64,000 nucleotides of DNA from a virus. Positions 2,612-42,697 of the stretch are shown piece by piece. The notes beneath the pieces are model-generated. The model saw only the letters and a list, made by a program, of their open reading frames with translations, searched no databases and was not told the origin of the DNA. Numbering within the stretch: position 1 is the stretch's first letter; every line of letters begins with the position of its first letter. The position numbers and the translations under genes were made by a program. Where the stretch lies: UHGV virus genome UHGV-1364187. The stretch is one strand, 5' to 3'.

Positions 2612-3990
2612 CTGCTGGAAACTCCTTAGAGCTAAATAAACTACAACGTAATCTGTAAAGATAAGCGTGAATGTTTGAAAATTATTTAGATTGGACAATC
2701 AGCAGCCAAGTTATCAATTATAATTTAACAATAAATGAAATTATATAAGTGATAGTAATACATATTACTATACTAAAATATATAAGGAGGTATTGTTATG
2801 AATGATAATTTCATAGTACCAGCATTTATTGTTAAAGAAAAAAGTAAGAGAAGAATTTATGGAACATCTTTTACAAAAAGAACAAGAACTTATATTTTAT
2901 GGCTACACTATATTTGAATATCCAGAAGAATGGAGACCTATAGAATGCTTTGATATTAAAAAAGGATTATACTTAATATCTAATTATGGTCGTGTGTATA
3001 GTATGCAACACAATGTGAATTATCGGTTTTACCTAATGATGGTTACAGACAAGTTGTATTACAAACAAAAGACAATAAAAGAAAGACATATTCCATACAT
3101 AGATTAGTTATATATACATTCATTCCAAAAACTGATGAAGATATAATAAATCAAAGAGATTATATTAATCATAAGAATCTTCATAGAGATTGTAATTTCA
3201 CATGGAATCTTGAATATGTAACACCTAATGAGAATACTATACACGCTATAATTAATAATGCCATTGGTGAAGATTATTCTTATGAATATAGTGGAAATTG
3301 GAGTAAAGGTGAAAGAACATTCGGTGAAAATAACGGAATGTCAGAGTGGACAGAAGAACAAGTTCATATTATATGTCAAGCATTACAAGATGGGAAAATC
3401 TACAAAAGATGCATTAACTTTAGCTGGAATTCCTGTAACTGATAACGCTATTTATAATGTAAGTCATATTGTTCAAGGTAAAAGGTGGAAGTATATTTCT
3501 AGTCAGTATAATATTCAACAGAAATGGAAGATAACTGATAAATCCGATTTTGTAATTCCAGTATGTGAATTGTTAGAGAAAGGTTATAGTCCATCTGAAA
3601 TTTATGAATTACTTCCAGATATTCTTGGTAAAAGAGATAATGTATTACCGTTTATACGAGGTATTAAAAGACGTAAATATTATACTAATATTAGTAAGAA
3701 TTATAATTGGTAAAAGGTTCAACGACTATCGAAAAGACATGTGCAAACATGGAACTTAGTAGAGTACACTTTATATAAAGTGGAAATGGGAGGCTTCTCT
3801 ATAAAGAGATGAAGATATAGTCTATCCGATATAGAAATATATCGCTATACTTATACGGATATTATAAATATTTCGTTATTTATAAAAATGATAGTCGTAT
3901 AAGTATTAAATTCCGAAGATGGGGACCAACTTTCGAGTAAAGTAGCGTATACGCTTGAAGCTAATGATGAGCTTGATAAGTATATGAATT
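2556..3990 (+). mobile_element. group I self-splicing intron carrying a degenerate HNH homing-endonuclease ORF; boundaries approximate
   Basis: 5' block TAACTGCTGGAAACTCCTTAGAGCT...AATCAGCAGCCAAGTT (CTGCTG/CAGCAG pairing) and 3' core GTTCAACGACTATCGAAAAGACATGT...ACATGGAACT.AGTAGAGTACAC...AGTGGAAATGG...GATATAGTCT (P7-like GACTAT/ATAGTC) are shared with the second intron at 37.4-37.8 kb. The HEG ORF sits in a peripheral loop between the two blocks. Confidence 0.7.
2799..3713 (+). pseudogene. HNH/NUMOD4 homing endonuclease gene, interrupted by at least three frameshifts
   Basis: Frame A 2799-: MNDNFIVPAFIVKEKSKRR. Frame B 2829..3107: PEEWRPIECF...YLISNYGRVYS (NUMOD4-like). Frame C ~3026..3440: GYRQVVLQTKDNKRKTYSIHRLVIYTFIPKTDEDIINQRDYINHKNLHRDCNFTWNLEYVTPNEN (HNH motif). 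Frame D 3258..3713: GKSTKDALTLAGIPVTDNAIYNVSHIVQGKRWKY (C-terminal HTH typical of HNH HEGs). The shifts coincide with the A6 run at ~2836, the T4 run at ~3027 and the A4 run at ~3408. Confidence 0.7.
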
Positions 3991-4114
3991 CTAACTCATA
4001 TTATATCGACATGGGTGGAAATTGTATTCGTACAACGACCAACGAAGCAATTCAAGCTATATACTCTTTAACAAAAGTTGTAGATAAATCGAAATTAACA
4101 GATCCAATATTCTA
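3957..4114 (+). CDS. putative short 3' exon of the RNAP beta-prime N-fragment gene (LEANDELDKYMNSNSYYIDMGGNCIR...DPIF*)
   Basis: Open frame immediately after the intron 3' core, ending at TAA ~4112-4114 and followed by a strong terminator. The exact 3' splice site is not determined. Confidence 0.3.
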
Positions 4115-4126
4115 AAATATAATAAT

Positions 4127-4399: not shown

Positions 4400-4882
4400 A
4401 TGGAAAAAGATATTGTATTTATAGTTGAAGATTCTCAAAAGATTGATAATTATTTAACACTAATGTTTAACAAAATACCAGAATTTGTAGAAGAAAGAAA
4501 AAGAGACATATTAGAGAAAAATGGTATCGAATATGATGATATTAACGATTACTATATTACACCTCTAGGATATAAAAATTCAGAATGTAAAAGTATTCAA
4601 GAGATGTTTAAACATATAATGTTACCTATATTTATATATTATGATATTAAAAATAACCATGTTATATCATATAACTCTATATCTAGTTATATATCAAATG
4701 AACTCGAAAGAATTCCTATGGTAATATATGATAAACATTACAATGAAATATTAACAGTGTATAATATTAAAGAATATTATACATTTTTAGAACAGTATAA
4801 ATTATTCATCTTAAATTTATTTAGTGATGAATATTATGATATTACTATGGCGTTGACAAAACTAATGAATAAATGGGAGTAA
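4400..4882 (+). CDS. hypothetical protein
   Basis: ORF 4391..4882; the ATG at 4400 is properly spaced from AAGGAGAG; no recognisable domain. Confidence 0.5.
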   Translation: MEKDIVFIVEDSQKIDNYLTLMFNKIPEFVEERKRDILEKNGIEYDDINDYYITPLGYKNSECKSIQEMFKHIMLPIFIYYDIKNNHVISYNSISSYISNELERIPMVIYDKHYNEILTVYNIKEYYTFLEQYKLFILNLFSDEYYDITMALTKLMNKWE

Positions 4883-4972
4883 TAATAGATAGTATTGGAG
4901 ATGTGATATTTAACATATATAGGTATATATTGAATAAAATTAAAATATATTATATAACAAAGGAGAATTAAT

Positions 4973-5404
4973 ATGAAAAGTAAAGTATACTACAAATGTT
5001 CAGAATTAGTAAACAATGACGAAATTGATATGTTTGTTAAACAAGTATATCTAGCATTTTATAATGATGCTAGATATAAGAATTTAGTTGATGAATATGG
5101 AAGAAGATTCGATATTAAGAGGCCTCATATATATTTCCATAATATGTCAACCACTACAATGATAAGAAGTATTGTACTTTATCTTATAAATAAAGTACAT
5201 AAAGAATATTTATCTGTAGATTATGTTGTGTATTATGCTATATCTGTAATAGAACAAAAGTTAGTTAAGTTCTCTGTATTAGATAATATTATTGCACAAC
5301 AACTTTTACTATTAAAACCTGGAAGTGAACTTATTGATGTTATCTTATCACGAAATGCTATCGGTGAAGATGATGATAAAATCTTCTTTTGTAAAAGTAA
5401 ATAA
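4973..5404 (+). CDS. hypothetical protein
   Basis: ORF with RBS AAAGGAGAATTAAT ATG. Confidence 0.5.
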   Translation: MKSKVYYKCSELVNNDEIDMFVKQVYLAFYNDARYKNLVDEYGRRFDIKRPHIYFHNMSTTTMIRSIVLYLINKVHKEYLSVDYVVYYAISVIEQKLVKFSVLDNIIAQQLLLLKPGSELIDVILSRNAIGEDDDKIFFCKSK

Positions 5405-5442
5405 TCTCAATTATATATTATAACTATGAATAATATACATTG
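5405..5442 (+). promoter_or_regulatory. plus-strand copy of the conserved phage promoter motif TCAATTATATATTATAACTATGAATAATATA
   Basis: matches the consensus TTCAATTATATATTATATAAATGAATAATAATATT found upstream of many minus-strand genes, here in the opposite orientation; no protein gene follows. Confidence 0.5.
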
Positions 5443-5651
5443 ATTATATTATTGGAGCGTTATAATATTTGATTGGGAGACGATAATATGGTGACAAGAA
5501 TAAGGAATAGTATATCGTAATTGTACGGATGTCAAGACGTGTTATATTTAACTAGAAAGGGGGATTCGTACCATGCCAGACGATTACGAAACATACGGAA
5601 CAGAGTATTAAATAGTATTAATCCCAAAAAACATTAAAAACTGTTTTTTAT

Positions 5652-5692
5652 AAACACTAGATAGATTGGTAGCTATCTAGTGTTTATTTTTT
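5652..5692. terminator. terminator AAACACTAGATAG-loop-CTATCTAGTGTTT then ATTTTTT, between convergent transcription units
   Basis: 13-bp perfect stem; T tract on the plus side, A-rich on the other. Confidence 0.7.
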
Positions 5693-5693
5693 A

Positions 5694-6248
5694 TTATTTT
5701 CTGTGTTGTCTTCTTGTGTTTACATTTATTTGAGGTTTAACTGCTTCTTTTACTGGTACTTCAGTAGTGGTTTCTTCTACTTTAGTTTCTTCAGCAGTTA
5801 CTACTTCTTCTGCTGGAGCTAAATCATCAACTTTGGTTTCTTCTTTTACTGGAACTTCAGTAGTGGTTTCTTCTACTTTAGTTTCTTCTTTAGCTTCATT
5901 AATTGATTCTTTTACTAATTCTTCTGTAGATTTAACTTCTACAGCTTCATTCTTAATTTCTCCTTTAGCTTGTTTAACAGCTTCTTCAACAGCTTTTTCT
6001 AATTGAGGTTTGAATCCTAATTTTGTAGGATCAACAACAATTTTTCCACCATTGTCTTTATTATAATTAGTAAAGTTTAGTCTTACAATATCTCCATTTG
6101 GTAAGATTTCATCTACAGTAGCTCCTCCGACTAAACATCTGTAAATTTGATCTTCAGTCATTTGTCTATTTGAAAATTTACCAATTAATGGAGTAATATC
6201 TACACCATGTACTGGTGTGTTTGCTTTTACATTAACTTTTTTCATCAT
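5694..6248 (-). CDS. repeat-containing protein with conserved N-terminal domain and C-terminal (K)VEETTTEVPVKE tandem repeats; possibly virion-associated
   Basis: ORF; GC content above the local background; a ~95-nt unit is repeated at 5759-5795 and 5854-5890. Confidence 0.55.
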   Translation of the reverse strand: MMKKVNVKANTPVHGVDITPLIGKFSNRQMTEDQIYRCLVGGATVDEILPNGDIVRLNFTNYNKDNGGKIVVDPTKLGFKPQLEKAVEEAVKQAKGEIKNEAVEVKSTEELVKESINEAKEETKVEETTTEVPVKEETKVDDLAPAEEVVTAEETKVEETTTEVPVKEAVKPQINVNTRRQHRK

Positions 6249-6453: not shown

Positions 6454-7671
6454 TTATTTCCTCCTTTTAGTCATTTTTACTATTTTGTTAGCATTATAAT
6501 TAAGTATATAGATTACTATAGGAATCAAATAGTATAATCTTTTATTTTTTGAGAATACAACTTCTTCTAATGTCTCTATATCAGCTTTGGTTATAGTTTT
6601 ATTATTCATGTAGTTTATAATTATATTCTCTAAGTGATCTGGCATATCTAATGGTTCGTCATCTACTATAGCTTCTATAAGTTTTACATCTATAGTTTCT
6701 ATTGTTGTATAACAAGCCAATACAAATTCATCTTTTTGAATATAATGTGGTCTATAATATGATTCTTGCCTCATACTCAATATAGAATTTATCTGATTTA
6801 TATTATCAAGATAAGCATTATAATAACAATCTTCTAGTTTATTTTTGTCTTTATCTTCTATATGCCTAAAGAATGTTTTATCATACTCTAATGAGAATGT
6901 TGGTTCTAGATACATTTGTTGAGTATAACAAGAAAAGTTCTTATCATATGATAATATCTTATTTCTTATTAAGAACTCATTTAATGCAGGATCATAGACA
7001 AATTGTTCATTATATTGTAATATGAAAGATTCTACTCTAGTATTAAAAAATAAATCTATATAATATTCAATAAGCTTAGAAATTAATACATCTATAGCAG
7101 TTAAAAAATCAAAATCGGTTTTTTCTATATATGCGTTATATTCTGTACCGATATTATTTATTACCATTTCATATTCACCGACTATCTTGTCTAATACACC
7201 ATCTGGGTTATTTCTAGTATAAGAATATGAAATAGAGTAAACTGTTTCTACTTCTGGAGTACCGTATTCAACTTTAGTAACTTTGAATAGATATTGATTA
7301 TCATAATGGTTTATAATAAAGTAATCATTTGCTTTTGGAACAAATCCTGGAAGCATAGTACATTCACCTTCTATATCTCCAGATTCCAATCCAAAATCTC
7401 CTAGTTCCATCGATAACGTGAGTTTCTCTAATCCATATAAGATTACATTATTAATCTTCTTGAACTTTATAGGCGAATCTTTACCTCTATCAGAATAAGC
7501 TTTAAGATTACCTTCATCTAATGTAGATAATTCTTCTGATTGAGATAAATATGTAACTATAGTTTTACCTTTATCTAATAATGGATAATATGGATTATTA
7601 TGCATATTTTTAAATCCATCTGTAAGTTTATCTACAGTATTTTGTATATTCATATTGACAAACTTTCCCAT
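6454..7671 (-). CDS. hypothetical protein (405 aa) with C-terminal hydrophobic helix
   Basis: ORF preceded by AAGGAGG; no recognisable motif. Confidence 0.5.
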   Translation of the reverse strand: MGKFVNMNIQNTVDKLTDGFKNMHNNPYYPLLDKGKTIVTYLSQSEELSTLDEGNLKAYSDRGKDSPIKFKKINNVILYGLEKLTLSMELGDFGLESGDIEGECTMLPGFVPKANDYFIINHYDNQYLFKVTKVEYGTPEVETVYSISYSYTRNNPDGVLDKIVGEYEMVINNIGTEYNAYIEKTDFDFLTAIDVLISKLIEYYIDLFFNTRVESFILQYNEQFVYDPALNEFLIRNKILSYDKNFSCYTQQMYLEPTFSLEYDKTFFRHIEDKDKNKLEDCYYNAYLDNINQINSILSMRQESYYRPHYIQKDEFVLACYTTIETIDVKLIEAIVDDEPLDMPDHLENIIINYMNNKTITKADIETLEEVVFSKNKRLYYLIPIVIYILNYNANKIVKMTKRRK

Positions 7672-7721
7672 AATAAAACCTCCTTAATATATTAATTTTA
7701 ATAAGATTATATAGATGTAGA

Positions 7722-7768
7722 CAAAAAATAAATCTAGTAAAGGTGCCCGAATACCTTTACTAGATTTA
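7722..7768 (-). terminator. terminator AATCTAGTAAAGGT-gcccgaat-ACCTTTACTAGATT
   Basis: 14-bp stem flanked by A/T tracts. Confidence 0.6.
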
Positions 7769-7875
7769 TTATATATATGCAGTAGTTTTAATAAACATTT
7801 GTAGTTTTTGATTATAATACTATAAGATGCTCAATATACTTGAGCACTATATAAATACGACAATCTGTTGTAGTT

Positions 7876-8022
7876 TTATTTCTTTATAGCACTTTCTTTT
7901 ATTTCCCATTTGATATTTGATGTTGCACTGTATCCTATACATAATGATGTAACATAAACTGTTACAGATACAAATACTATTAGTATTGCGAACATTATAT
8001 TCTTTTTGTTGCTTGTTTTCAT
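7876..8022 (-). CDS. small membrane protein (48 aa, MKTSNKKNIMFAILIVFVSVTVYV...)
   Basis: short ORF below the ORF-track cut-off with RBS GAAGAGG and one transmembrane helix. Confidence 0.35.
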   Translation of the reverse strand: MKTSNKKNIMFAILIVFVSVTVYVTSLCIGYSATSNIKWEIKESAIKK

Positions 8023-8043
8023 TTTAAAATAAACCTCTTCTCT

Positions 8044-9066
8044 TTATAGTTGTATAAAAGTGTCAATAATTCTATCTGGGCTTACGCCATAATCTTTTTC
8101 TCCGATACAATTATTAGTGTGCAGATATGTTGGAATTCCAAAAACCTGCAATACTTGTGATAGTTGTATAAATTGTGCGATATCTACTTCACTATCACGA
8201 TATATGTGAACTTCACAATAGAACATATTAAGTTTAATTAATTGGTCTATTAGTGAAAGATAATTTTTATTCTGTAATGCATAGTATATACCTGGTTCTC
8301 TATTACGAAGATTTAAATATACCGATAATATATCAAAAGGACCTTCTGCCAAGCACACTAGCGTTCTTTTAGATGTATTTAAATATACCTGAGTAGGTAT
8401 AATATAATATGAATCATCCATATCATCATTGAATATTTTGTAGTTTACATATCTCTTATCTACATATTTAGAGACTTTCCCTTCTCTAAGATTTCTCATA
8501 TTTATAGCACCATTATGTCCAGCTATAAAACCAATAAATGAAGAGTTTAACTCATCCATTACCATTGGATATCTAGTATATTCTTTTATGTTATTATAAT
8601 TCAATAGATCATATAGATTTAAAACTATTTTAAGATTTATAATATCATTATAAGTAAGTTGAGTTCCTAAGCGTTTATTTATAAAAGCAAGTTTAAGTTC
8701 ACTCATCTTACTATCTGATATATACCCGTTCTGAATTGTATATATTCTTTGATTATTCTTATTTACTCTTGGTTTATATTTTGATTCTTTATACCCTTTG
8801 TTTAATTCTAATGCTAATTCAGAATCAAATATACCAATTGAATTTAAAAATTGAGTTGTGACTATTCCGCTATTAGGACATCTTTTACAATGGTACATCG
8901 GAATACCATTATTCATTCCTATATATAAATGTGTTGAATGATCGTCACAATTATTACATCTCATACATACTTCATTACCACCAGAACATGGTCTGGCTGA
9001 AGAAATATTTTCTAATAGCAAGCTTTTAAGATGTTCCCATATGTCTATATCTGCCATATTATTCAC
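8044..9066 (-). CDS. DNA primase (zinc-ribbon plus TOPRIM)
   Basis: Zinc ribbon: CSGGNEVCMRCNNCDDHSTH...HCKRCPNSG. TOPRIM: LAEGPFDILSVY with the E, plus YRDSEVD with the DxD. Confidence 0.7.
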   Translation of the reverse strand: MNNMADIDIWEHLKSLLLENISSARPCSGGNEVCMRCNNCDDHSTHLYIGMNNGIPMYHCKRCPNSGIVTTQFLNSIGIFDSELALELNKGYKESKYKPRVNKNNQRIYTIQNGYISDSKMSELKLAFINKRLGTQLTYNDIINLKIVLNLYDLLNYNNIKEYTRYPMVMDELNSSFIGFIAGHNGAINMRNLREGKVSKYVDKRYVNYKIFNDDMDDSYYIIPTQVYLNTSKRTLVCLAEGPFDILSVYLNLRNREPGIYYALQNKNYLSLIDQLIKLNMFYCEVHIYRDSEVDIAQFIQLSQVLQVFGIPTYLHTNNCIGEKDYGVSPDRIIDTFIQL

Positions 9067-12919: not shown

Positions 12920-14617
12920 TTACATGTATTTATTCTCTGCAGTATTTCTACAGATAAATTGATTTGATGTATAAATCAATGTAAGAATTTTAGCAATAGC
13001 ATCTAATACTGCACAATCTGATTCAATAGATGCAATAATATCTTTATTAAATTCTTTCTTTACGACATCGTATACTACAGTTCCTTTTTGTTCAATGATA
13101 TTATTAATAATCCCATCAGAATCTGTAATATTCGAATTTGAATATAAGATTTTAATAAGATTTCTATATGATCTATTGATAATATTCTTTATAGTATCTT
13201 TATGATAATCATTAGAATAATCAATTACATATGATGCGTATAATCCTTCAACATTAGATGCCATACCATAACCATGTTCATCAGCAGATCTAATATTAAG
13301 AACAGCATCTTCTACTAAATCTCTTACAGAATCTCTATCAGCAGCACTAATACCACCAATATGAAATTCTACTAAATTTCCTTTAAGAGATTGAATTCTA
13401 CGTTTCATCTCACCAATTTCATGAGCATTTGCTCCTTGTTCTTTTCGTTTCTTTAATTCTGTCTCTAAATAGTTTAAGTGAACATTGAATGTTTTTGAAT
13501 AGTCTCCATTTTCATCTCTCATTTCTTTTGGATTGACAAATTTGGATTTATCAGCATCACATTCAAATACTTCACATGTACCGTAGAAATCTTTTGAAAT
13601 ATTATCTAATGTTGGAGCTAATCCCTTTTTAACCATTTCTTCATAGATCTTCTTATCAATAGATTTCTGAATAGGTTTTGCTCCAATCATTTTAATGATA
13701 TCCATATATTGTTCTGTTTGTGTAATATTCGTAACTACACATAATGGAAGTCTACTCTCTGATGATTGTTGAGAGAACATTCCAATGATATTGTCTATGT
13801 AATTACTCATATCCCTAGAAATACTTGGTACCAAGATTACAGTTGGTACAATCATATCTGGTTTATTTTCATTGATAGCTGTAACAATATTATCATAGAT
13901 AATCTTATCAAAGAATTGAGCTTGTTCTAATGTATTGATAGGATCAATAAATGCATAGATTCTTGGTTTAGGAATAATACATTTATTCTTAGATGTATTT
14001 ACAAATGATGGGTCCATATATCCACATTGTAAATTCATACCGTTATATTCTTTTAAAGCTGTTACTCCATTAGAAGATACAGCTACGTCGATGAATACAC
14101 CTGAACCAAATTTAGCATAAATATCTCTTAATGTTTCAGCAATTCTTACGTTTCCATTAGTAGATACCATTGCAATTTTATATACAGCATCTAAATCTAA
14201 TTCTTTAGATCTAGTTTTAATTTGTTTAATAATATCATTAACTACACTTTGGAATTGTCTCATAACTTCAAAAGGTGTTAAATCTTTAGATATAGAGCTT
14301 TTTAACAATTCTTCAAAGATAAGATGTGAAAGTAAAATAGCTGATGTTGTTCCATCTCCAACTTCTTTTACTACAGATCTTGTAATTTCATAGATATCTT
14401 CTTTAGTCGAACTTTCAATATCTCCTATAACTTCAATTTTACTCAAAATAGACTTACCGTCTTTTGTATATCTTGTAAGAGTTTGAGTACCTCCACTGAT
14501 TGTAGTGTTAGATCCATCAGGACCAAAAGATAACTTTAAACAATCTGCTAAGAATTTTAAAGTTTCTAATCTAACCTCTACTAATTTTTTACCTGATACT
14601 ACATTTGATCTAATCAT
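12920..14617 (-). CDS. GroEL/Cpn60-family chaperonin
   Basis: LADCLKLSFGPDGSNTTI...TKDGKSILSKIEV...VKEVGDGTTSAILLSHLI aligns to the GroEL segment LADAVKVTLGPKGRNVVL...TKDGVSVAREIEL...AGDGTTTATVLA (GDGTT ATP-binding motif). Confidence 0.75.
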   Translation of the reverse strand: MIRSNVVSGKKLVEVRLETLKFLADCLKLSFGPDGSNTTISGGTQTLTRYTKDGKSILSKIEVIGDIESSTKEDIYEITRSVVKEVGDGTTSAILLSHLIFEELLKSSISKDLTPFEVMRQFQSVVNDIIKQIKTRSKELDLDAVYKIAMVSTNGNVRIAETLRDIYAKFGSGVFIDVAVSSNGVTALKEYNGMNLQCGYMDPSFVNTSKNKCIIPKPRIYAFIDPINTLEQAQFFDKIIYDNIVTAINENKPDMIVPTVILVPSISRDMSNYIDNIIGMFSQQSSESRLPLCVVTNITQTEQYMDIIKMIGAKPIQKSIDKKIYEEMVKKGLAPTLDNISKDFYGTCEVFECDADKSKFVNPKEMRDENGDYSKTFNVHLNYLETELKKRKEQGANAHEIGEMKRRIQSLKGNLVEFHIGGISAADRDSVRDLVEDAVLNIRSADEHGYGMASNVEGLYASYVIDYSNDYHKDTIKNIINRSYRNLIKILYSNSNITDSDGIINNIIEQKGTVVYDVVKKEFNKDIIASIESDCAVLDAIAKILTLIYTSNQFICRNTAENKYM

Positions 14618-31481: not shown

Positions 31482-33551
31482 TTATTCTTCATCTCTTTTT
31501 ACTATCGTTGCTGGAACTACCATATCATTATTATATTTAACTTCTGTAGAATAATCCCCAGGAGCATTAATAAAATCATAATAGTTAACCATAAAGAATA
31601 AATCCATAAAACTTGGAGATCTCTTCTTAAATGTTGCTGCTGTATAAATAGCTCTCTTAGTTCTTTCATATGATAATGAGATAGCTACACTAGGATGATT
31701 ATTCAATGCTTTACTTAATGTCAAGATTGTATATCTGTTATTGTTAGGAATAGACCAATCTGGTTTTTCTAAGATTTCATCAGATTCAAGTCCAAGTCTA
31801 ATTTGATTTGCTATAATAACTTCACAGTGTATAGCATCTGTCTTTACATCACCCTCAATACATGTTTCAACAAATGTTTGGATTAATGAATCTATAGTAT
31901 GTTTAGATGTAACTTCGCTCTTATTGATAAGATTAGTTAATCTCTTAAGAGTATCAGCAAGACCATTATTTCTAATCTGCATCATAAATATATTCATTTC
32001 ATTAATCTCATCAAATGGTATTGTAACAATACCATCAACATCAGTATATTTATCTATCATAGCAGATAGTTCTGGTGTAAAGTAAATATCATCATCATCT
32101 TCTGTTGACAATGAGAATAAGTTTCCTTCTTCATCTCTAACTTTAATCTCACATACAGATTGATTATACTCATAGTTTTCATATTCATTTTCAATATGAA
32201 TTTCACTATCAATAATCAATAAAGTGTCTTTTATCTCTATATCATCTCTAATAGATATAAGATTTCCATCTAATATAAAGAAGTCACCAAATTGTTTAAC
32301 CCATTTAAGTTCTTTAATTTTCGCTTCTAATAGATGCTTTGCTGATAAAAGTTTTTGAGTCAATTCTGATGATAATAATTCAGCTGCAATCTTACCAATA
32401 TTGATATCCCTATTAGTGTATGCAACATCCCCATAACATTTATAACAAATACCATTACCTTCTGAAAATGATTTACATTTAGCAGGAGATCTAAAGTAAA
32501 CAGTTTTACCAATAAGATCCATTTCCATTCCTGTTATCATAAACTCTTGTCCATCTGGATAGAATCTATAATATCTAGAGATATATTTCTTCAGCATTTC
32601 ATAACTAGTAATAGTTATCTTAACGAAATTTCTTGTACCACAATCATAATTTGGATCTTCATTAAGCTCTGTATCTTGATTATTTAAACCTAATAAACGT
32701 GCTAAATGCCCACTATCAGATACATTAGTCTTAGATAATAATTGTGCAGTACGACCACTATATTCCTCAATAGTGTGTTCTGTAGCATTACTTAATCCAC
32801 CAACAATATAGTTTGAATTAATAATCTTACTAAAGATCCCACCAACTCCATTTGGTTTAGCACCACCAGCTACAGCAAACTCTCTATGCTGTTTCTTATT
32901 AATAGCTTCTCTAGCTTTAAATGAATCTTTATAACAATGATCTTCTGAATTTTTAATAATATCAACAAGTTCATCATTAAGTTGATTTGCTATATTATTA
33001 ACTTCATTTATAGGATATCCAGATAAATCACAATGCATAATATCGTATGCTCTCGGGTTTTCATTCATAAGATCTCTATAATCTTTAAGATTAGCAGTAT
33101 TAGCCAAGAACATACTAAATTCATCTATAGATTTGAATTGATATTCGATATCATCTATGATATTATTTAACCTAATATTATCCATATCTTTTCTATATGG
33201 AATAATAAGATAATTATTGATAAAGTCTGCTATCATGTCAGCTACAAAATCATCTTCAAATACTAGATGTTTTGGTTCGATATGATTTCCTGTCATAACT
33301 ACAAGTTTCCATAATGCTATATTAGTATAACTATCTGGTATTGACAAATCAACATCTGTACCATCGTCAAACACATAAGTGATAAAGTTGGACATTACTT
33401 GATCACTATTAATTCCATCTCTTAATACATTTAAGAGAGAGTTAAAGTAATAATCTACATTATCAGATGTAATATCTTTTGTGTAGATTATTGTTTTCTC
33501 GCCTCTTGTAAAACTTACAAAAGGACCATAGTTTTCTGGATAATCAAACAT
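31482..33551 (-). CDS. multisubunit RNA polymerase beta-prime homolog, C-terminal fragment; C-terminal tag [14 protein letters not shown]
   Basis: [53 protein letters not shown] aligns to the beta-prime trigger-loop region SPLTC..[63 protein letters not shown] aligns to [22 protein letters not shown] (region F). Confidence 0.7.
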   Translation of the reverse strand: [689 protein letters not shown]

Positions 33552-33600
33552 TAATATCCCTCCTATTTTTCTTAATATATTAAAGTTAATTCTTGTGTAA

Positions 33601-33633
33601 CTTTCAAATATATAATATATGATTTCATTTCAT
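33601..33633 (-). promoter_or_regulatory. conserved promoter motif upstream of the beta-prime C-fragment gene
   Basis: reverse complement reads ATGAAATGAAATCATATATTATATATTTGAAAG. Confidence 0.4.
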
Positions 33634-33660
33634 ATTACTAAGAAAAAATAAAAGAACGGA

Positions 33661-33876
33661 TTACTCTGTTCTTTTATATTCTAAATCAAATACATCCATA
33701 ATAGTATCTAGATTTATACCTATAGATGATAATTTTTCTAATATATATTTCCGATATTCCATTTTAGTCTTTTCATGTATACACTTAACTCTAGAATACT
33801 TTGTGTATAATTTATCATTGTTTCTAGCAGCCATTCTAATACATATAGATTTTAATATATCATCACTTAAATTCAT
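33661..33876 (-). CDS. small hypothetical protein
   Basis: ORF. Confidence 0.4.
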   Translation of the reverse strand: MNLSDDILKSICIRMAARNNDKLYTKYSRVKCIHEKTKMEYRKYILEKLSSIGINLDTIMDVFDLEYKRTE

Positions 33877-33899
33877 AATTAATCATCCCCCTTTTAATA

Positions 33900-34366
33900 A
33901 TTATTAAAATCTACACCATATACTTTTTCTATTACTGTAAGTAGTTCAATATACTCATTTTCAGTAATAGGTTTACCATTGTGTGCAAATTGTTCAGTTT
34001 TTCCTCTATTTTTATAATACACAATACCATAATGATCTGTAATGATTTCCTCAATATCATCTATTATAGTAATTGTAATATATATTTTTTTTGATCACCA
34101 ACTCTTGTAGATGAAAATACTATTAATGTATAATCTTTAGGTACGCCTTTATTGTCATCTATTTCGCAACCACAACTAGAAATACTATCATGTAAATCTA
34201 GATCTTCATCATATATAAAGTTTCTAATGAGTGACACATCACCACCATTCCAATTTTCTGGATTCCACGATCTGTCTTCATTAAACGCTCTAACTGGTTT
34301 AGATGCAAATCTTGGATTTGCACAATTTTCCTTATATAATTTTACAAATAATTCATGATTTACCAT
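33900..34366 (-). pseudogene. hypothetical gene interrupted at a T8/A8 run (~34087-34094); ORF 34366..34064 continues in another frame to 33900
   Basis: The two contiguous ORF segments are joined only by a 1-nt shift inside the homopolymer. Confidence 0.4.
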
Positions 34367-34393
34367 AACTTAAACATCTCCTTTATTATTCTT

Positions 34394-34425
34394 TTATTCA
34401 ATAGTATAATATAATAATTGAAAAT
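34394..34425 (-). promoter_or_regulatory. conserved promoter motif plus AAAGGAGATGTTTAAGTT leader upstream of the 34366 gene
   Basis: reverse complement reads ATTTTCAATTATTATATTATACTATTGAATAA. Confidence 0.45.
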
Positions 34426-34463
34426 AATATTGGATAGAGTATAAAAACTCTATCCAATATTAA

Positions 34464-34916
34464 TTATGCTTTTTTAAGAGGTGCAATTGTTACTCTTCTT
34501 CTGAATGCATTTGGTACTTCTTTAATGTATTCTTTTTGAGCTTTTACCGCAGCTCTTGATGCTAAAGTACCATACTTAGCTTCCATTTTTTCTTCAAGAG
34601 ATTTTTCTTTCTCTTTATGTTTCTTCCATTGTTTCCATAATGGGTCATTCTTTTGTTGTGCTAAATAGATAGCAGCAGATTTTGTACGTCTTGATAAATC
34701 ATCAAGTTTTGAAAGAACTACTACAGAGTTAGCTTCTGTAATAATACCTTTATCGAACATTGCTTTAGCTACATCTGATTCTAAGAATTGCTCAAATTCT
34801 TCTTTAATAGGCATAGCCATAGCTAGTTCTTCCCATACCATAGCCTCTTTAATTGCTTTTTCATTATCTTCCTCTGTTTGAATTCTTGTATGTTCAAATA
34901 ATGCATCACCAAACAT
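34464..34916 (-). CDS. hypothetical protein
   Basis: ORF. Confidence 0.45.
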   Translation of the reverse strand: MFGDALFEHTRIQTEEDNEKAIKEAMVWEELAMAMPIKEEFEQFLESDVAKAMFDKGIITEANSVVVLSKLDDLSRRTKSAAIYLAQQKNDPLWKQWKKHKEKEKSLEEKMEAKYGTLASRAAVKAQKEYIKEVPNAFRRRVTIAPLKKA

Positions 34917-35108
34917 ATTAATTCCTCCTTAATTAGACTATATTGATTTATTTAAATGTTTTCATATATAAACTAATAAAGAGACAATTATGACAAAAAA
35001 TAAAAGGTAGTAGACTATATATCTACTACCTTTTATTATTTAAAGTTCTATCTTTAATACTATCTATAACTTATTATTTTTCATATAAAATACACTCATT
35101 TTTTTTAA

Positions 35109-35735
35109 TTATAATTCTTCTACTGATTCTCTTCCATCATTATTTATAATATTGTATGGTTCTTTAACATTTACAATTATTAAATCTGAACAACTTGTGT
35201 CTGCTTTACTACCTAATTCTTCTACTACTCTTATTAAATTTTCATCATCTCTTTTTATATCTTCAAAATTAAAGTCTATTTTTTCGCATAATTTAACATC
35301 TTCGATTTCTTCATCATAATAAGTATTAGTAAAGAATATACTATCTGAATTAATACGATATGATATGCTCAAAAATAATTCTGTAACTAATTTAGCTTTA
35401 TTGTCATCTATAGTCTTAAAATATGCGTATACATCTGAATTTGTTCTAAGTTTTAGATATTCAATACATGCTAACACACTTAAATCAAACCTACCAAAAC
35501 AATCATTAATTACTATTTGTTTCGTATTTTCTTTATCACTATCATGTTTATAATAAGAATATAATTCATCTGAATATATCATCTCATTACCACGATAATA
35601 TTGTTTTTCAATACTAACTTCAGCTTCTTGTTCAAAGTATTCTTCCAATTCTTCATTTTTATGTCCTAAGAATAAAACTACTTTTTCTAATAAACCACTT
35701 TTTTCATTGAATCTTTCATCTAATACTTTAATCAT
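35109..35735 (-). CDS. hypothetical protein
   Basis: ORF directly behind a conserved leader cassette. Confidence 0.5.
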   Translation of the reverse strand: MIKVLDERFNEKSGLLEKVVLFLGHKNEELEEYFEQEAEVSIEKQYYRGNEMIYSDELYSYYKHDSDKENTKQIVINDCFGRFDLSVLACIEYLKLRTNSDVYAYFKTIDDNKAKLVTELFLSISYRINSDSIFFTNTYYDEEIEDVKLCEKIDFNFEDIKRDDENLIRVVEELGSKADTSCSDLIIVNVKEPYNIINNDGRESVEEL

Positions 35736-35764
35736 AATTAAACATCTCCTTTAGATATAATATT

Positions 35765-35797
35765 ATTATTCATTTATATAATATATAATTGAAATAA
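35765..35797 (-). promoter_or_regulatory. conserved promoter motif TTTCAATTATATATTATATAAATGAATAATAATATT
   Basis: perfect consensus copy. Confidence 0.55.
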
Positions 35798-35805
35798 TGC
35801 TTTTT

Positions 35806-36195
35806 TTACAAATCTTGTTTAAAATATACATATTCTATACCATCATCATCTGTTCTGACTATATAATCACTACCATCAGGAATTTCAACTACTCTAAATT
35901 TATCACTTTCATATTCTTCCACAATAGATATAAATAATTCATCTGTTCTGTTATAATCTGTAATAGCATTTATACTTATATAATTTGTTTCTAATATATC
36001 GTTACATACATAGAATGTATACTCTATACATATCATATTTTTTACATCATTAAGTTTACATTTTTCGTTTCTATTAAAGAGTACATTTTTAGAGTATATT
36101 TCTATACTCTCTGTATTATACTTACGTCTTAAGTACTCATATACAGTCTTCACTCTAAGAATGTTGTTTAATTGATTTGATAAAATTACTTTCAT
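35806..36195 (-). CDS. hypothetical protein
   Basis: the MFIMK artefact trimmed to MKVILSN. Confidence 0.45.
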   Translation of the reverse strand: MKVILSNQLNNILRVKTVYEYLRRKYNTESIEIYSKNVLFNRNEKCKLNDVKNMICIEYTFYVCNDILETNYISINAITDYNRTDELFISIVEEYESDKFRVVEIPDGSDYIVRTDDDGIEYVYFKQDL

Positions 36196-36225
36196 TATAA
36201 ACATCTCCTTTTAATATTATATTCA

Positions 36226-36252
36226 TTTATATAATATATAATTATAATATTT
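36226..36252 (-). promoter_or_regulatory. conserved promoter motif AATTATATATTATATAAATGAATATAATATT
   Basis: consensus copy. Confidence 0.55.
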
Positions 36253-36326
36253 ATCAATTTCAATAATATTTGAAAGTATAAATTGTCTCTAACTTATCTA
36301 TAATGATTAAATAAGGAGGAATTAGG

Positions 36327-37373
36327 ATGGTCTTAGAAGAAAATTTAAATGATATGGAAGTTATCAAAAGATACAAGCAATTTTTTAAGGAGATGATTTG
36401 GTTTAATAAACCAAACATATCTGAGCAAGAATTAGAAGATGTAATGAATTGGTCAATACAGAAGAGAATCAAAAATTCATCATTAGAATTATATGATTCT
36501 TATAAGGAAAAACGAGCAGATTCATCAGTATTAGAATGGCTAGAATACTTCTATGCTAATGAACCAATTATAACTCCCAATGGGGTTATGTTTAAAAAAC
36601 ATAATGAAGAGCTTAATCCTGTGAATAAAATGATACAGGGATTCTTAAAAACACGTGCTAAATACAAAAAAGAAATGTTTAAATATCCTAAAGGATCTCG
36701 TGAATTTGAAAAATATAACCTACTTCAACTTCTCTCCAAGATTGATGCTAATAGTATATATGGTTGTTTAGGTAATTGGAGTGCTGTATATTATAACGTA
36801 AATGTTGCTAGTTCAGTTACAGCATGTGGTAAATCTTCTATTTCAGCAGCAGGTTTAGCATTTGAACAGTTCTTAGCAAATAACGTTAAATTTAGAAAGT
36901 TAGACGAAGTTATAGTATTTATTAATCATATCATTAAAGAAAAACCAAATAGAAAATTCAATGATAAAGATATTCTAGATAGAGATATTACAGTAGAAGA
37001 ATGTTTTATAAAAGTAATGTCTACATGTGGTCATGGTTATACTCCTTCTATGGAAGATTGTGAAATCATATGGGATATTATTAGTAAACTTAACAGTGAA
37101 GATCTTAATAGAATATACTATAAGAATAATCTATTAGAATTCTTTGACAATAAAGTAATGACTAATATGGTTATAGAAGTATTAAAGAGACTCAATAAAC
37201 CTTGGATGGATCCGAATAAAGTTCCAAAAGAAATTGAACTTGAAATGGATACAATGTGGGATTTAGTAAGTGAATATGTATTTTATAAATATCAAATCAT
37301 TGATAGACAAGATAGATTAGAGTTTCTTCCAAGAAAAATTACATGTATTATAGACACCGACTCTTTTGCATAA
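36327..37373 (+). CDS. family-B DNA polymerase, C-terminal (palm/thumb) part, exon 1
   Basis: Motif B QLLSKIDANSIYGCLGN (KxxxNSxYG) followed by ASSVTACGKSSI. Motif C TCIIDTDSFA (DTDS) lies at the very end of the ORF. No motif A (DxxSLYPS) and no exonuclease domain, so the N-terminal half must be encoded elsewhere. Confidence 0.75.
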   Translation: MVLEENLNDMEVIKRYKQFFKEMIWFNKPNISEQELEDVMNWSIQKRIKNSSLELYDSYKEKRADSSVLEWLEYFYANEPIITPNGVMFKKHNEELNPVNKMIQGFLKTRAKYKKEMFKYPKGSREFEKYNLLQLLSKIDANSIYGCLGNWSAVYYNVNVASSVTACGKSSISAAGLAFEQFLANNVKFRKLDEVIVFINHIIKEKPNRKFNDKDILDRDITVEECFIKVMSTCGHGYTPSMEDCEIIWDIISKLNSEDLNRIYYKNNLLEFFDNKVMTNMVIEVLKRLNKPWMDPNKVPKEIELEMDTMWDLVSEYVFYKYQIIDRQDRLEFLPRKITCIIDTDSFA

Positions 37374-37778
37374 TAAACTGTTTTATTATGTAAATAGGAG
37401 CATTATATAGTAATATATAATGAAAACCCTTTTAATTGCTGGGAAGCCTTAAAGCTCACCTGCCTATATTTTAATGAATATAGGAACGAAAGTAGAAACA
37501 AGTGGTGAGATAGTATATGGTGTAAACCTAAGTACTGCAAACAATGGGTAATCAGCAGCGAAGTTTCTTATAAAGTTATAAGAAGAACGTTCAACGACTA
37601 TCGAAAAGACATGTTTATATAAACATGGAACTGAGTAGAGTACACTCAAGTGAGTGGAAATGGAGGGGGTCTTATTTTATATAAGATCATGATATAGTCT
37701 GCTCACTATGGAAACATAGTGAAGTTCATAAGAGAACTGCATAGAATTAACGACTCTATGTGAACATAAAGGAATATT
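37368..37778 (+). mobile_element. ORF-less group I intron inserted immediately after the PolB DTDS codons; boundaries approximate
   Basis: TTAATTGCTGGGAAGCCTTAAAGCT...AATCAGCAGCGAAGTT and GTTCAACGACTATCGAAAAGACATGT...ACATGGAACTGAGTAGAGTACAC...AGTGGAAATGGAGGGGG...GATATAGTCTGCTC match the intron in the beta-prime gene block for block (P7-like GACTAT/ATAGTC). A P9-like hairpin CACTATGgaaaCATAGTG follows. Confidence 0.75.
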
Positions 37779-38849
37779 TTGAACTTAGATTTTTGGTATA
37801 GATTTATCAAAGATAAAGTAATCGGTATTGATATGAAAATTAAACATGAAATGTATGACATTGCAGAAATCATTAAAGCTGATGAATTTGGTGATAGAGA
37901 AATGATGAAGCCTGCAGAGATAGTAGATATCGAAGATGATTATGATTTCTATGAAGATGAAACAGTAGAAATGGAAAGATTAATCAATCCTGCAAAATTA
38001 GTACCAAATGACTCATTAAGATATTCTATAATAAATATTATAGCATACTTATGTGGTAATATGATTAATGAAGAGATGGTATTATACACAAAACAGAACA
38101 ATTCTTATAGTCCTGATAGACCATGTAGTCTTATTATGAAGAATGAATTCTTATTTAAAAGAGTTTTATTGACAAATGTAAAGAAAAGCTACGCTAGCAT
38201 CATAGAGGTTCAGGAAGGAAATATAGTACCATCTTCCAGTTCATTGGACGTGAAAGGATTACAAATTAGAAAATCAACACTACCAAAAAGAACAAGAGAT
38301 CAATTACAAAGTATATTATATGAAGATATACTAAACTCTGGAGATAATCTCGATCAAAGATGCATACTCAAAGATATTATATTATTAGAAAAACAAATTT
38401 ATAAATCACTTACATCTGGTAGTAAAGAATACTTTAGACCAGCACAAGTTAAAGCTATGGGATCATATGAAAATCCACTAAGAATTTCTGGATTTAAGGG
38501 ATGTGTTGTATGGAATGAGTTAACAGATCTTAATACAGAAAAACATGATCTTAATATTAGAAATGCTGTTGATATTATCAAAGTAGTTTTAAATGCAAAA
38601 ACTGTCGATAAATTAAAAGATTTTCCTGATGTATATGAGAGAGCTGTGAAGCTATTAAACGATCCATCATTTGCAGGGGGAATTAATGGTATATCTGTAC
38701 CATTAGGAGTAGAAACACCAGAGTGGTTATATCAAATTATCGATTATAATACAATTATTAATGATAATTTATCAGTAATGCCATTAGAAAGTGTAGATAT
38801 AATTATTGGAAATTCCAATATAAACTATTCAAATATGGTGCAAATGTAA
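37779..38849 (+). CDS. family-B DNA polymerase, exon 2 (thumb)
   Basis: Open frame resumes right after the intron core. The ORF-track TTG at 37779 is not a real start. Exact 3' splice site not determined. Confidence 0.6.
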   Translation: MNLDFWYRFIKDKVIGIDMKIKHEMYDIAEIIKADEFGDREMMKPAEIVDIEDDYDFYEDETVEMERLINPAKLVPNDSLRYSIINIIAYLCGNMINEEMVLYTKQNNSYSPDRPCSLIMKNEFLFKRVLLTNVKKSYASIIEVQEGNIVPSSSSLDVKGLQIRKSTLPKRTRDQLQSILYEDILNSGDNLDQRCILKDIILLEKQIYKSLTSGSKEYFRPAQVKAMGSYENPLRISGFKGCVVWNELTDLNTEKHDLNIRNAVDIIKVVLNAKTVDKLKDFPDVYERAVKLLNDPSFAGGINGISVPLGVETPEWLYQIIDYNTIINDNLSVMPLESVDIIIGNSNINYSNMVQM

Positions 38850-38850
38850 A

Positions 38851-38886
38851 AAAATAAAAGAAGAGTCAATTAAGACTCTTCTTTTA
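38851..38886. terminator. bidirectional terminator AAGAAGAGTCaattaaGACTCTTCTT
   Basis: 10-bp stem with A6TAAA / T4ATT flanks. Confidence 0.7.
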
Positions 38887-39469
38887 TTATTGTTGCTGGA
38901 ATAATTAATTTATTGTATCTCATCTCTGCATGTGTGCCATACTCATCATATGGAAGATTATTATCAACTCCAGCAAAGTTTAAAAACTCGTTAGAATCTA
39001 CTAAATTATTATTGCTTATAATATTTCCTATAGATTCTAATGATCCATCTAATTGATTTTTATCAATTTCTAATGTATTAGTAATTCCTTTATCACTATC
39101 ACCCCATTGAACATGATATTCATATGGAGCATCCGATATTGGATTACCATATAAATCACATTGTCTAACTTGACATAATCTCATATCAACTCCAACTGTA
39201 GGTCTCATAATTCCATCATAATTATAAAAACAATTAGTTTGAGTATAAAAATGTACAACACAATCATTTGATATATCTGTGTTTATGTAGTTAGATTTAA
39301 TATAGTCTATAATCCATTGTGTAGTGTTACTATCGTTTCTATATACAAAATCGTTTCTAAACATAATTTCATCATAGAATTCGCTTGTATCTGGATTTAG
39401 GTTACAGTCATCAGATACAATAAGACAATTAGTCTCATAGTTTAATAATACATATAAATTTTTTAACAT
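38870..39469 (-). CDS. hypothetical protein; C-terminal tag KLIIPATIIKEES
   Basis: The ORF-track GTG start lies inside the RBS AAAAGGTGG; trimmed to the ATG at 39469. Confidence 0.5.
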   Translation of the reverse strand: MLKNLYVLLNYETNCLIVSDDCNLNPDTSEFYDEIMFRNDFVYRNDSNTTQWIIDYIKSNYINTDISNDCVVHFYTQTNCFYNYDGIMRPTVGVDMRLCQVRQCDLYGNPISDAPYEYHVQWGDSDKGITNTLEIDKNQLDGSLESIGNIISNNNLVDSNEFLNFAGVDNNLPYDEYGTHAEMRYNKLIIPATIIKEES

Positions 39470-41689: not shown

Positions 41690-42697
41690 TTAAATTGCTA
41701 CTGAAGCTTTAATAGCATCACCACATTTATATCCATTAATCTTAATATCTTCTAGTTTAATATTTCTAATATCTTCGCCTAATAGATCTTTAGTAAATTC
41801 AATCTTAGGTAAGTCGTATAATTCTCTAGATAGATATTCTTTTGCCTGATCAATATGATTTTGGTAAATATGTGTATCGCCAAAATTATATGTCATTGTT
41901 CCAACTTGTAATCCACTAATAGCACCCATCATATGTAAAAAGATTCCATATTCTGCTAAATCAAATGGAACCCCTAGAATACTGTCAGCACTACGTTGAT
42001 TTACAATCATATGTAATTTATCATTGATTACTAAAAACTGGATAGAAAATACACAAGGTGGTAAATCTACATAAGGAACACTAGCAGTATTCCATGAATT
42101 AAGAATAATTCTTCTTGAATCTGATTTACTCTTAATAAGTTTTTGTGTAATATCTAATTGGTCTACAATGTTCACAACGACTTCTTGTTCTTGAGTATTC
42201 ATATTATTCATTTCTACATGTTTATTATACTTCCAAGCATTACCATAGATATCTTCATATACTGTAAGTTCTCTAGATGTAATTTCATCATTAAGAATCT
42301 TTTGTTCAAAGATATCGAGTTGTTCTCTATATAGTTTAGCAAATTCTTCATCCTTATCTTTTAATACAGTCCAATTGTCTGGGAATACTGGTCCTGTATA
42401 TTTTTCATTTTCTGGGCATTTTCCCTCAATATATCTTTTAAATTTCCATTCTGTCCAGATATGTACATTTTGCTCTAATAATGTCTTTAAGTTTTGTTCT
42501 CCATTAATGAACCATAAAAGTTCTTTAATAGCTGTTCTATAAGCAGTTCTTTTTCCAGTAACAATAGGAACACTACCATCTGATAAATCAAATTTCATAC
42601 TATAACCAGGAATACGGATAGTTCCTACTCCAGTTCGGTCTGTGCTAACTTCACCTGTTTCTAAAATAGTTTTAATCATTTCTTTATATTGTTTCAT
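41690..42697 (-). CDS. thyA: thymidylate synthase family enzyme (ThyA-like; a dCMP or dUMP hydroxymethylase cannot be excluded)
   Basis: MKQYKEMIKTILETGEVSTDRTGVGTIRIPGYSMKFDL...VTGKRTAYRTAIKELLWFINGEQN and DLPPCVFSIQFLV...NQRSADSILGVPFDLAEYGIFLHMM...GDTHIYQNH align with the ThyA signature including the catalytic Cys (PPC). Confidence 0.75.
   Translation of the reverse strand: MKQYKEMIKTILETGEVSTDRTGVGTIRIPGYSMKFDLSDGSVPIVTGKRTAYRTAIKELLWFINGEQNLKTLLEQNVHIWTEWKFKRYIEGKCPENEKYTGPVFPDNWTVLKDKDEEFAKLYREQLDIFEQKILNDEITSRELTVYEDIYGNAWKYNKHVEMNNMNTQEQEVVVNIVDQLDITQKLIKSKSDSRRIILNSWNTASVPYVDLPPCVFSIQFLVINDKLHMIVNQRSADSILGVPFDLAEYGIFLHMMGAISGLQVGTMTYNFGDTHIYQNHIDQAKEYLSRELYDLPKIEFTKDLLGEDIRNIKLEDIKINGYKCGDAIKASVAI

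Follow-up and report, generated by a model that had tools for sequence, protein, structure and literature searches.

The interrupted DNA polymerase gene

The 64,000-nt stretch of the virus genome UHGV-1364187 that was analyzed here (the window), from an uncultured jumbo phage of the gut, carries on its + strand a gene for a family-B DNA polymerase (PolB), which is split by a group I intron directly after the codons of the catalytic motif DTDS. This location had been recognized in a first-pass annotation made from the letters alone, and the matches of the spliced product to PF20286 and PF00136 described below bear it out. The first open reading frame (ORF) of that annotation, 36327–37373 (+), was found as described: it contains motif B (SKIDANSIYGCLGN) and has the C-terminus ...TCIIDTDSFA, followed by TAA TAA. 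Another ORF, likewise on the + strand, reaches 38849, also as described. The proposed resumption of the frame at 37779 did not hold: the frame of exon 2 is open from 37770, the TTG at 37779 is merely the start chosen by the ORF finder and exon 2 begins with the AAT at 37773.

The junction can be read from uninterrupted homologues, in which DTDS runs directly into NF(L/V)xLDP (AR9 g152 and PALS_2) or TFLYIRP (phiR1-37), the window having DTDS and then NILNLDFWY. These homologues fix the junction at DTDS|NILNLDF and the intron at 37365–37772 (+, 408 nt), so that the coordinates first given for it (37368–37778) were 3 nt off at the start and 6 nt off at the end. The neighboring bases differ and the junction therefore cannot slide, and excision of the segment restores a frame that is colinear with the uninterrupted homologues. 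Exon 1 ends with the Ser codon TCT at U37364, and the Phe and Ala codons with both stops (TAA TAA) that follow it in the first ORF are intron sequence; the 5′ end of the intron is TTT GCA TAA TAA, where translation of unspliced RNA stops. The last base of the intron, at 37772 (+), is a guanosine (omega-G). Exon 1 (36327–37364, +) encodes 346 amino acids (aa), with its own strong ribosome-binding site AAGGAGG, the motif B SKIDANSIYG and the terminal DTDS, and exon 2 (37773–38849, +) encodes 358 aa plus the stop and begins with NILNLDFWY. The spliced PolB protein has 704 aa, and the correct annotation of the gene is join 36327..37364,37773..38849, which gives one 704-aa polymerase. We regard this correct annotation as the main value of finding the intron.

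A search with the Rfam group I model, which the first-pass annotation had proposed as a check, gave a match of 81.6 bits (E 3.3e-19) to RF00028 (Intron_gpI) at 37377–37721 (+), covering the full model (1–253) and lying well above the Rfam gathering score of 50 for this family. In the gathering-threshold scan of the entire 64-kb window, this was the sole match. No + strand ORF of at least 40 aa, and thus no homing-endonuclease gene of that size on this strand, lies within 37365–37772, which agrees with the earlier description of the intron as ORF-less. The intron has 32.8% GC, compared to 26.6% for the window. The uninterrupted homologues and the Rfam match together show the segment 37365–37772 to be a group I intron, whose insertion point in PolB lies between the codons for the Ser of DTDS and the Asn that follows.

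The interrupted form of the gene is found repeatedly in metagenome data. The exon 1 protein is 100% identical to a protein cluster present on six contigs, four independent metagenome assemblies span the intron with zero mismatches, and the 7 kb around the polymerase gene of the longest of these contigs (256.5 kb, gut metagenome, ENA ERZ27229639 k119_250412) occur letter for letter in the window. This allele is also present in ERZ2661206, ERZ2662666 and ERZ949711. An exact-match scan of IMG/VR with a 34-mer from the intron found nothing, and megablast of the PolB locus against phage genomes found only a 45-nt core match, in an intron region of Staphylococcus phage CF5. A search of the window for other introns, with blastn of the PolB intron and a regular expression for the P7 strands, found only one copy, in an RNA polymerase (RNAP) gene. 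The 373-nt gap at 7671–8044, which was considered as a further intron, contains a small ORF and a hairpin with a T-run instead.

The spliced PolB protein matched the Pfam families PF20286 (divergent family B polymerase, 135.5 bits) and PF00136 (52.4 bits), both above the cut-off, and both the family-B motif B (KxxxNSxYG) and motif C (DTDS) can be read directly from its sequence. Its matches among phage proteins are the "DNA polymerase catalytic subunit" of AR9, PBS1, Staphylococcus jumbo phages and phiR1-37, with 26–32% identity, and the N-terminus of exon 1 aligns from its first residue with the starts of AR9 g152 and PALS_2 gp195. No exonuclease-domain family, and hence no 3′–5′ exonuclease, was among the Pfam matches (E ≤ 0.01) of the spliced protein. 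This lack, together with the starting point shared with the AR9 g152 "catalytic subunit," is expected for a polymerase of the split type. The gene is thus predicted to encode the catalytic subunit of a divergent family-B DNA polymerase of the phiKZ/AR9 type.

The gene order at 31482–38849 is the same as that of AR9 g154-g153-g152, with a large minus-strand ORF, small genes and then the PolB catalytic subunit, and this synteny is kept although the protein identity is only ~30%. The minus-strand ORF (31482–33551), for which Pfam gave no match, is likely the C-terminal subunit of RNAP beta′, by AR9 synteny alone.

Structure and predicted splicing of the PolB intron

Two relatives, the Logan SRR13243519 contig (L070) and IMGVR_UViG_3300028602_000174 (L043), have introns at the identical site and were used for structural comparison. 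In the window, helix P1 (37361–37400, +) pairs the exon end CUCU (37361–37364) with the internal guide GGAG (37397–37400), so that U37364, the last exon base, stands within P1 in a wobble pair with G37397. L070 and L043 share this CUCU/GGAG pairing, and in the window a 13-bp extension hairpin of P1 spans 37365–37394. The P7 pairing noted earlier as GACTAT/ATAGTC was located between the 5′ strand GACUAU (37596–37601, +), with the G-C pair of the guanosine-binding site, and the 3′ strand AUAGUC (37694–37699, +). Both P7 strands are invariant in 35 related introns and hence uninformative for covariation. Helix P6 (37564–37585, +) is a closed 9-bp hairpin with a 4-nt loop, the loop that in L070, L043 and the intron of the RNAP gene of the window holds an endonuclease ORF of roughly 0.8–1 kb.

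Between the 5′ strand of P7 and the 3′ strand of P3 lie two peripheral hairpins, P7.1 (37610–37616/37621–37627, +) and P7.2 (37643–37647/37652–37656, +), both of which fold alone and covary. Hairpins P7.1 and P7.2 are typical of subgroup IA phage introns. By these two hairpins the PolB intron would be a phage-type intron of the subgroup IA type (IA2-like), the Rfam model used being only the generic one. The blastn similarity of the intron to Twort-like, Kayvirus and AR9/PBS1 introns is a lead on the subgroup, not a test of it.

Every domain of the intron folds separately into the expected helix. The unconstrained minimum free energy fold of the 428-nt precursor (z = −6.07) contained P1, P2, P3, P4, P5 with a three-way extension, P6, P7.1, P7.2, P8, P9, P9.1 and P9.2, that is, all helices save the P7 pseudoknot. 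For covariation, we aligned four introns (PolB of the window, L070, L043 and RNAP of the window) with the endonuclease inserts removed, and used a hand-specified structure of 73 pairs in 13 helices (P1–P5a and P7–P9.2), from which P6 was excluded as misaligned. In this alignment 95.4% of the cells were paired and 30 of the 73 pairs had changed on both sides; none of 500 shuffles equaled this result, and slid controls gave 35–47%. The core helices P3–P8 of the PolB intron, including the P3/P7 pseudoknot, are thus supported by covariation. A plain MAFFT alignment takes no account of structure, and RNAalifold, given one of 35 intron 3′ halves, therefore retrieved no helix but the invariant P7.

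Given this structure, splicing would be expected to proceed as follows. Exon 1, intron and exon 2 would be co-transcribed and the intron would fold into P1–P9.2. A free guanosine would then attack after U37364, which would be held in the U·G wobble with the internal guide sequence, and the freed exon end would next attack after the terminal G37772, so that the exons are joined into an mRNA for the 704-aa polymerase, ...IIDTDS-NILNLDFWY.... Unspliced RNA would give only a 348-aa fragment, because TAA TAA stands two codons into the intron. The only terminator-like hairpin in the region lies 3′ of exon 2 (38853–38888, +) and none was found between the exons of PolB, which suggests that exon 1, intron and exon 2 form one transcription unit.

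Splicing itself we infer from the sequence, and several observations weigh against it. The P10 helix of the PolB intron is weak, with ~4 bp that were read by eye and stand 3 nt off the junction. When Rfam was run on the whole window in E-value mode, only weak sRNA-like chance matches were reported and the 81.6-bit intron was unlisted, an omission that we treated as a filter artefact. Furthermore, a Shine-Dalgarno-like AAAGGA is found 6 nt before the TTG at 37779, and separate translation of exon 2 is conceivable. This AAAGGA would fit an inactive intron relic flanked by two independent polypeptides, one being exon 1 ending in DTDSFA and the other starting at the TTG, and so would the fact that polymerases of this family are already separate from their N-terminal/exonuclease part (AR9 g152 is annotated as "catalytic subunit"). 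In a relic, however, the core helices would not be expected to be all intact and covarying, as they are here, or the Rfam score to be far over the threshold. The TTG is, moreover, unconserved in the relatives with an intron at the same site (L070 has AAT ATT TTA AAC and L043 has AAT GTA GTT), 54 of 57 relatives are uninterrupted at this point, and the split would fall within the beta-hairpin of motif C. We therefore consider a relic with two polypeptides most improbable. The segment is very probably an active group I intron without an ORF, and the 704-aa polymerase could be made only after its removal by splicing.

Occupancy of the DTDS site and mobility of the intron

The 57 loci just mentioned, which encode PolB with 36–56% identity, were collected from IMG/VR. 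The 54 loci that are continuous across DTDS include 38 that are single tblastn matches over residues ~5–704, and the other three of the 57 (L043, L062 and L056) have an intron in DTDS. The introns identified at DTDS in relatives stand at three staggered positions. At DTDS|N, the identical site, L043 has an intron of 1208 nt with an intact 266-aa HNH ORF and L070 one of 1272 nt, whose P6 loop contains an HNH_3/NUMOD4 ORF of 268 aa; at DTD|S, L062 has an intron of 324 nt (4601–4924, Rfam 88 bits) and at D|TDS, L056 has one of 410 nt (5403–5812), neither with an ORF. The site DTDS|N is thus polymorphic, being empty in the 54 loci and occupied in L043 and L070. At least nine of the 42 homologue protein clusters end 3–14 aa after DTDS, which indicates widespread occupancy of the site; in gut-phage metagenomes, gene callers cut PolB at DTDS in no fewer than these nine clusters.

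In relatives, the PolB gene has three more insertion sites, namely motif B, MKNE|F and a position farther downstream (query residues 507–511). In L062, five matches to the family core (P7 strands) lie in or just upstream of the PolB gene, four of which pass the Rfam threshold. Some relatives have four or five group I introns in PolB (L062, 3276–5550; L056 and L047), and two Rfam matches of L062 just before motif B are only 18 nt apart (3439–3694 and 3712–3953). Distant blastn found similar introns in 715 phage records, with 12–16 places per genome in AR9/PBS1-type phages.

These observations agree with the homing-type lineage that had been proposed, since the same site has an HNH-bearing intron in relatives and is empty in most others, and the PolB intron belongs to a mobile lineage. 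As it encodes no homing endonuclease, it cannot move by itself. L070 is the closer relative, its PolB protein being 69% identical, and its ribozyme is 75% identical to the PolB intron of the window overall, 82% in the 3′ half and 85% in the P9 tail. The introns of L070 and L043 share the insertion point DTDS|N, the P1 pairing and the architecture with that of the window, and differ from it in having an intact HNH_3/NUMOD4 ORF of 266–268 aa in the P6 loop. The PolB intron is the ORF-less form of the same-site intron that bears an HNH/NUMOD4 endonuclease in the P6 loop of relatives, and it would be either a degenerate mobile element or dependent on an endonuclease provided in trans.

An ORF-less form could also be ancestral, the endonuclease genes of L070 and L043 being later invaders. 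The P6 of the window, a clean 9-bp hairpin without an ORF remnant, would be expected in this case, and many members of the family are ORF-less, such as L056, L062 and the mini-introns of the phage Machias described below. However, three endonuclease-carrying introns have a P6 whose 3′ strand is made up of the last ORF codons (Y-N-W-stop, TATAATTGGTAA), and in the window this strand opens with the same UUAUAA. This shared UUAUAA suggests that the intron of the window stems from one with an ORF. Whether the ORF was lost or gained we infer from such features, and they leave it undecided; an ancestral ORF-less state is tenable, if somewhat doubtful.

Group I introns in the polymerase genes of related phages have been described before. 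The Staphylococcus jumbo phages Machias, MarsHill and Madawaska have introns in the gene for the DNA polymerase catalytic subunit (MW349128; Korn et al., bioRxiv 10.1101/2020.12.14.422802). Their polymerases belong to the same AR9 g152-like divergent PolB family, with one intron inside the DTDS codons, and their introns belong to the same sequence family (TTAATTGCTG.GA / AATCAGCA / GTTCAACGACTA / GATATAGTCT). In Machias, PolB is a three-exon coding sequence in GenBank, with introns at D|TDS and MKNE|F (L003, 2452–2630 and 2866–3039); intron 1, of 179 nt, stands 9 nt upstream of the site in the window. These mini-introns of 174–179 nt keep the P3/P4/P7 core and are without the P5 extension, P7.1/P7.2 and P9.x (P9.1/P9.2 in the case of intron 1). 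They score under the Rfam gathering score, so that routine scans would miss them. The PolB of Yersinia phage phiR1-37 (g167/g164) contains an intron of the same family in the same polymerase gene (Rfam 63.4 bits), which differs in its site, MKSE|F, ~120 codons downstream and equal to the site of Machias intron 2.

More distantly, the DNA polymerase group I introns of Bacillus phages SPO1, SP82 and Bastille encode I-HmuI, I-HmuII and I-BasI. They are likewise IA-type phage introns in a conserved polymerase motif and are mobilized by HNH nicking endonucleases, but the polymerases are of family A and the introns carry their endonuclease.

The first-pass annotation had treated the intron as unusual; introns in PolB were, however, already annotated in Machias and are evident in phiR1-37. 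The PolB intron is an unexceptional representative of a family of introns that was known from polymerase genes in related phages, and adds one further example of selfish introns in the catalytic motifs of phage replication and transcription genes without opening a new question. The Gram-positive host that had been supposed is not established either: the window comes from a gut-metagenome contig, and its cultured relatives, with 25–35% aa identity, infect Fusobacterium and Yersinia as well as Bacillus, Staphylococcus and Listeria.

Introns of one sequence family occupy D|TDS (L056 and Machias), DTD|S (L062) and DTDS|N (window, L043 and L070), and an internal guide pairing with the local exon was read at every one of these positions, with a check by tools at DTDS|N only. 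One ribozyme lineage may have re-targeted itself among staggered positions within the nine bases that encode TDS, an interpretation for which we see the chances as about even. If so, the ORF-less copy of the window would be a snapshot of ongoing site-hopping and of endonuclease gain and loss, and this phage clade would lend itself, as a natural system, to the study of how new insertion sites are acquired by group I introns. These staggered sites, together with an RNAP intron that appears to end in A, are the sole points possibly of interest to intron specialists.

The related intron in the RNAP gene

A related group I intron lies at 2552–3917 (+), in the gene for RNAP beta′-N, where exon 1 (1106–2551) ends with GDF and exon 2 (3918–4115) starts with DGDQ. 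The intron sits in the catalytic loop at GDF|DGD, and intronless relatives with 73–78% identity read exactly LKGLEGDFDGDQLSSK; this gene should likewise be joined (1106..2551,3918..4115). The P6 loop holds a decayed HNH/NUMOD4 homing-endonuclease gene (2826–3713, +), which is in three pieces in frames 2, 1 and 2, separated by two frameshifts. The pieces are 67–75% identical to the intact 301-aa ORF of L073, and the orthologous endonucleases of L073 and L074 are intact, with 300–301 aa. While a single-protein IMG/VR scan for the RNAP gene found no relatives, an alignment-based scan worked, one of its patterns spanning the junction and being biased towards intronless loci.

Precedents for this intron are the introns of AR9 g145 (virion RNAP beta′-N) and the RNAP intron of PhiPA3 gp210 (PMC11620839). 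The second intron of AR9 g145 interrupts this catalytic loop too, at GDYD|GD, and shares a 3′ tail motif with the PolB intron of the window; it differs in its site, 3 nt downstream of GDF|DGD, and in its canonical G end. Introns in both DNA polymerase and RNAP genes have already been published for MarsHill-like phages and AR9. An endonuclease of an RNAP intron has likewise been published for PhiPA3, and the gut Jug phages are described as having about 18 group I introns in each genome.

The first-pass annotation had correctly pointed to a relative of the PolB intron in the RNAP gene, but counted two introns there, of which only one was found, and took the shared features as a sign of recent intra-genomic intron spread. 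If one of the two introns were a recent copy of the other, in either direction, their presence in one genome with a shared family core would be explained, as would the 81% identity in P7–P8 and the same P7.1 stem (ACAUGU/ACAUGG). With the insert removed, however, the two are only 65% identical overall and 49% in the P9 tail, and P2, the P5 extension and P9.x are not alike in them. The PolB intron is nearer to its ortholog in L070, at the percentages given above, the endonucleases of the PolB and RNAP sites are only 32% identical, and both sites are occupied in many distant relatives. The 5′ block that had been called almost identical in the two introns does not support recent copying either: for the 25-mer TTAATTGCTGGGAAGCCTTAAAGCT, the window contains no other match even when 3 mismatches are allowed, and the 16-mer AATCAGCAGCGAAGTT alone recurs, at 2697–2712, matching at 15 of 16 positions. 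Both 5′ blocks are the conserved P3–P4/P4′ core that is common to the whole intron family. A recent copy is thus highly unlikely, and the comparison argues instead that the PolB and RNAP introns are members of one old family.

The last base of the RNAP intron appears to be an A (...AAAUUCCGAA|GAUGGGG, 3905–3925). To our knowledge, a terminal G is universal in group I introns. The RNAP junction is fixed by P1 (GACUUU/GGAGUC), a 6-bp P10 (GAUGGG/CCCAUU) and the intronless homologues, which place the start of exon 2 at the GAT at 3918. The closest relative, L073, in which the endonuclease is intact, has an intron that also ends in A (...CAUGCAAAA|GACGGC, ~5360–5380), with a covarying P10 (GACGG/CCGUU). 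At the same RNAP site, seven introns end in G (L074, L076, L098, L121, L166, L167 and L091, the last being on the same contig as L164), and L103 and L104 are ambiguous in the last intron base. Were the nearest upstream G used as the splice site (G3915 in the window), the frame would be offset by +2 nt in the window and by +5 nt in L073. Of two metagenome scans for the RNAP 3′ junction, one was without matches and the other gave three chance matches in unrelated genes. As a rough estimate, we think it rather unlikely that the introns of the window and L073 really splice after A, which would be of concern to ribozyme specialists if true; otherwise, the RNAP gene would be defective or something else would have been missed.

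Elsewhere in the window, Pfam identified on the minus strand a GroEL/Cpn60-like chaperonin fragment and a thymidylate synthase (12920–14617 and 41690–42697). AR9 and S6, which are relatives of the phage represented by the window, are uracil-DNA phages.

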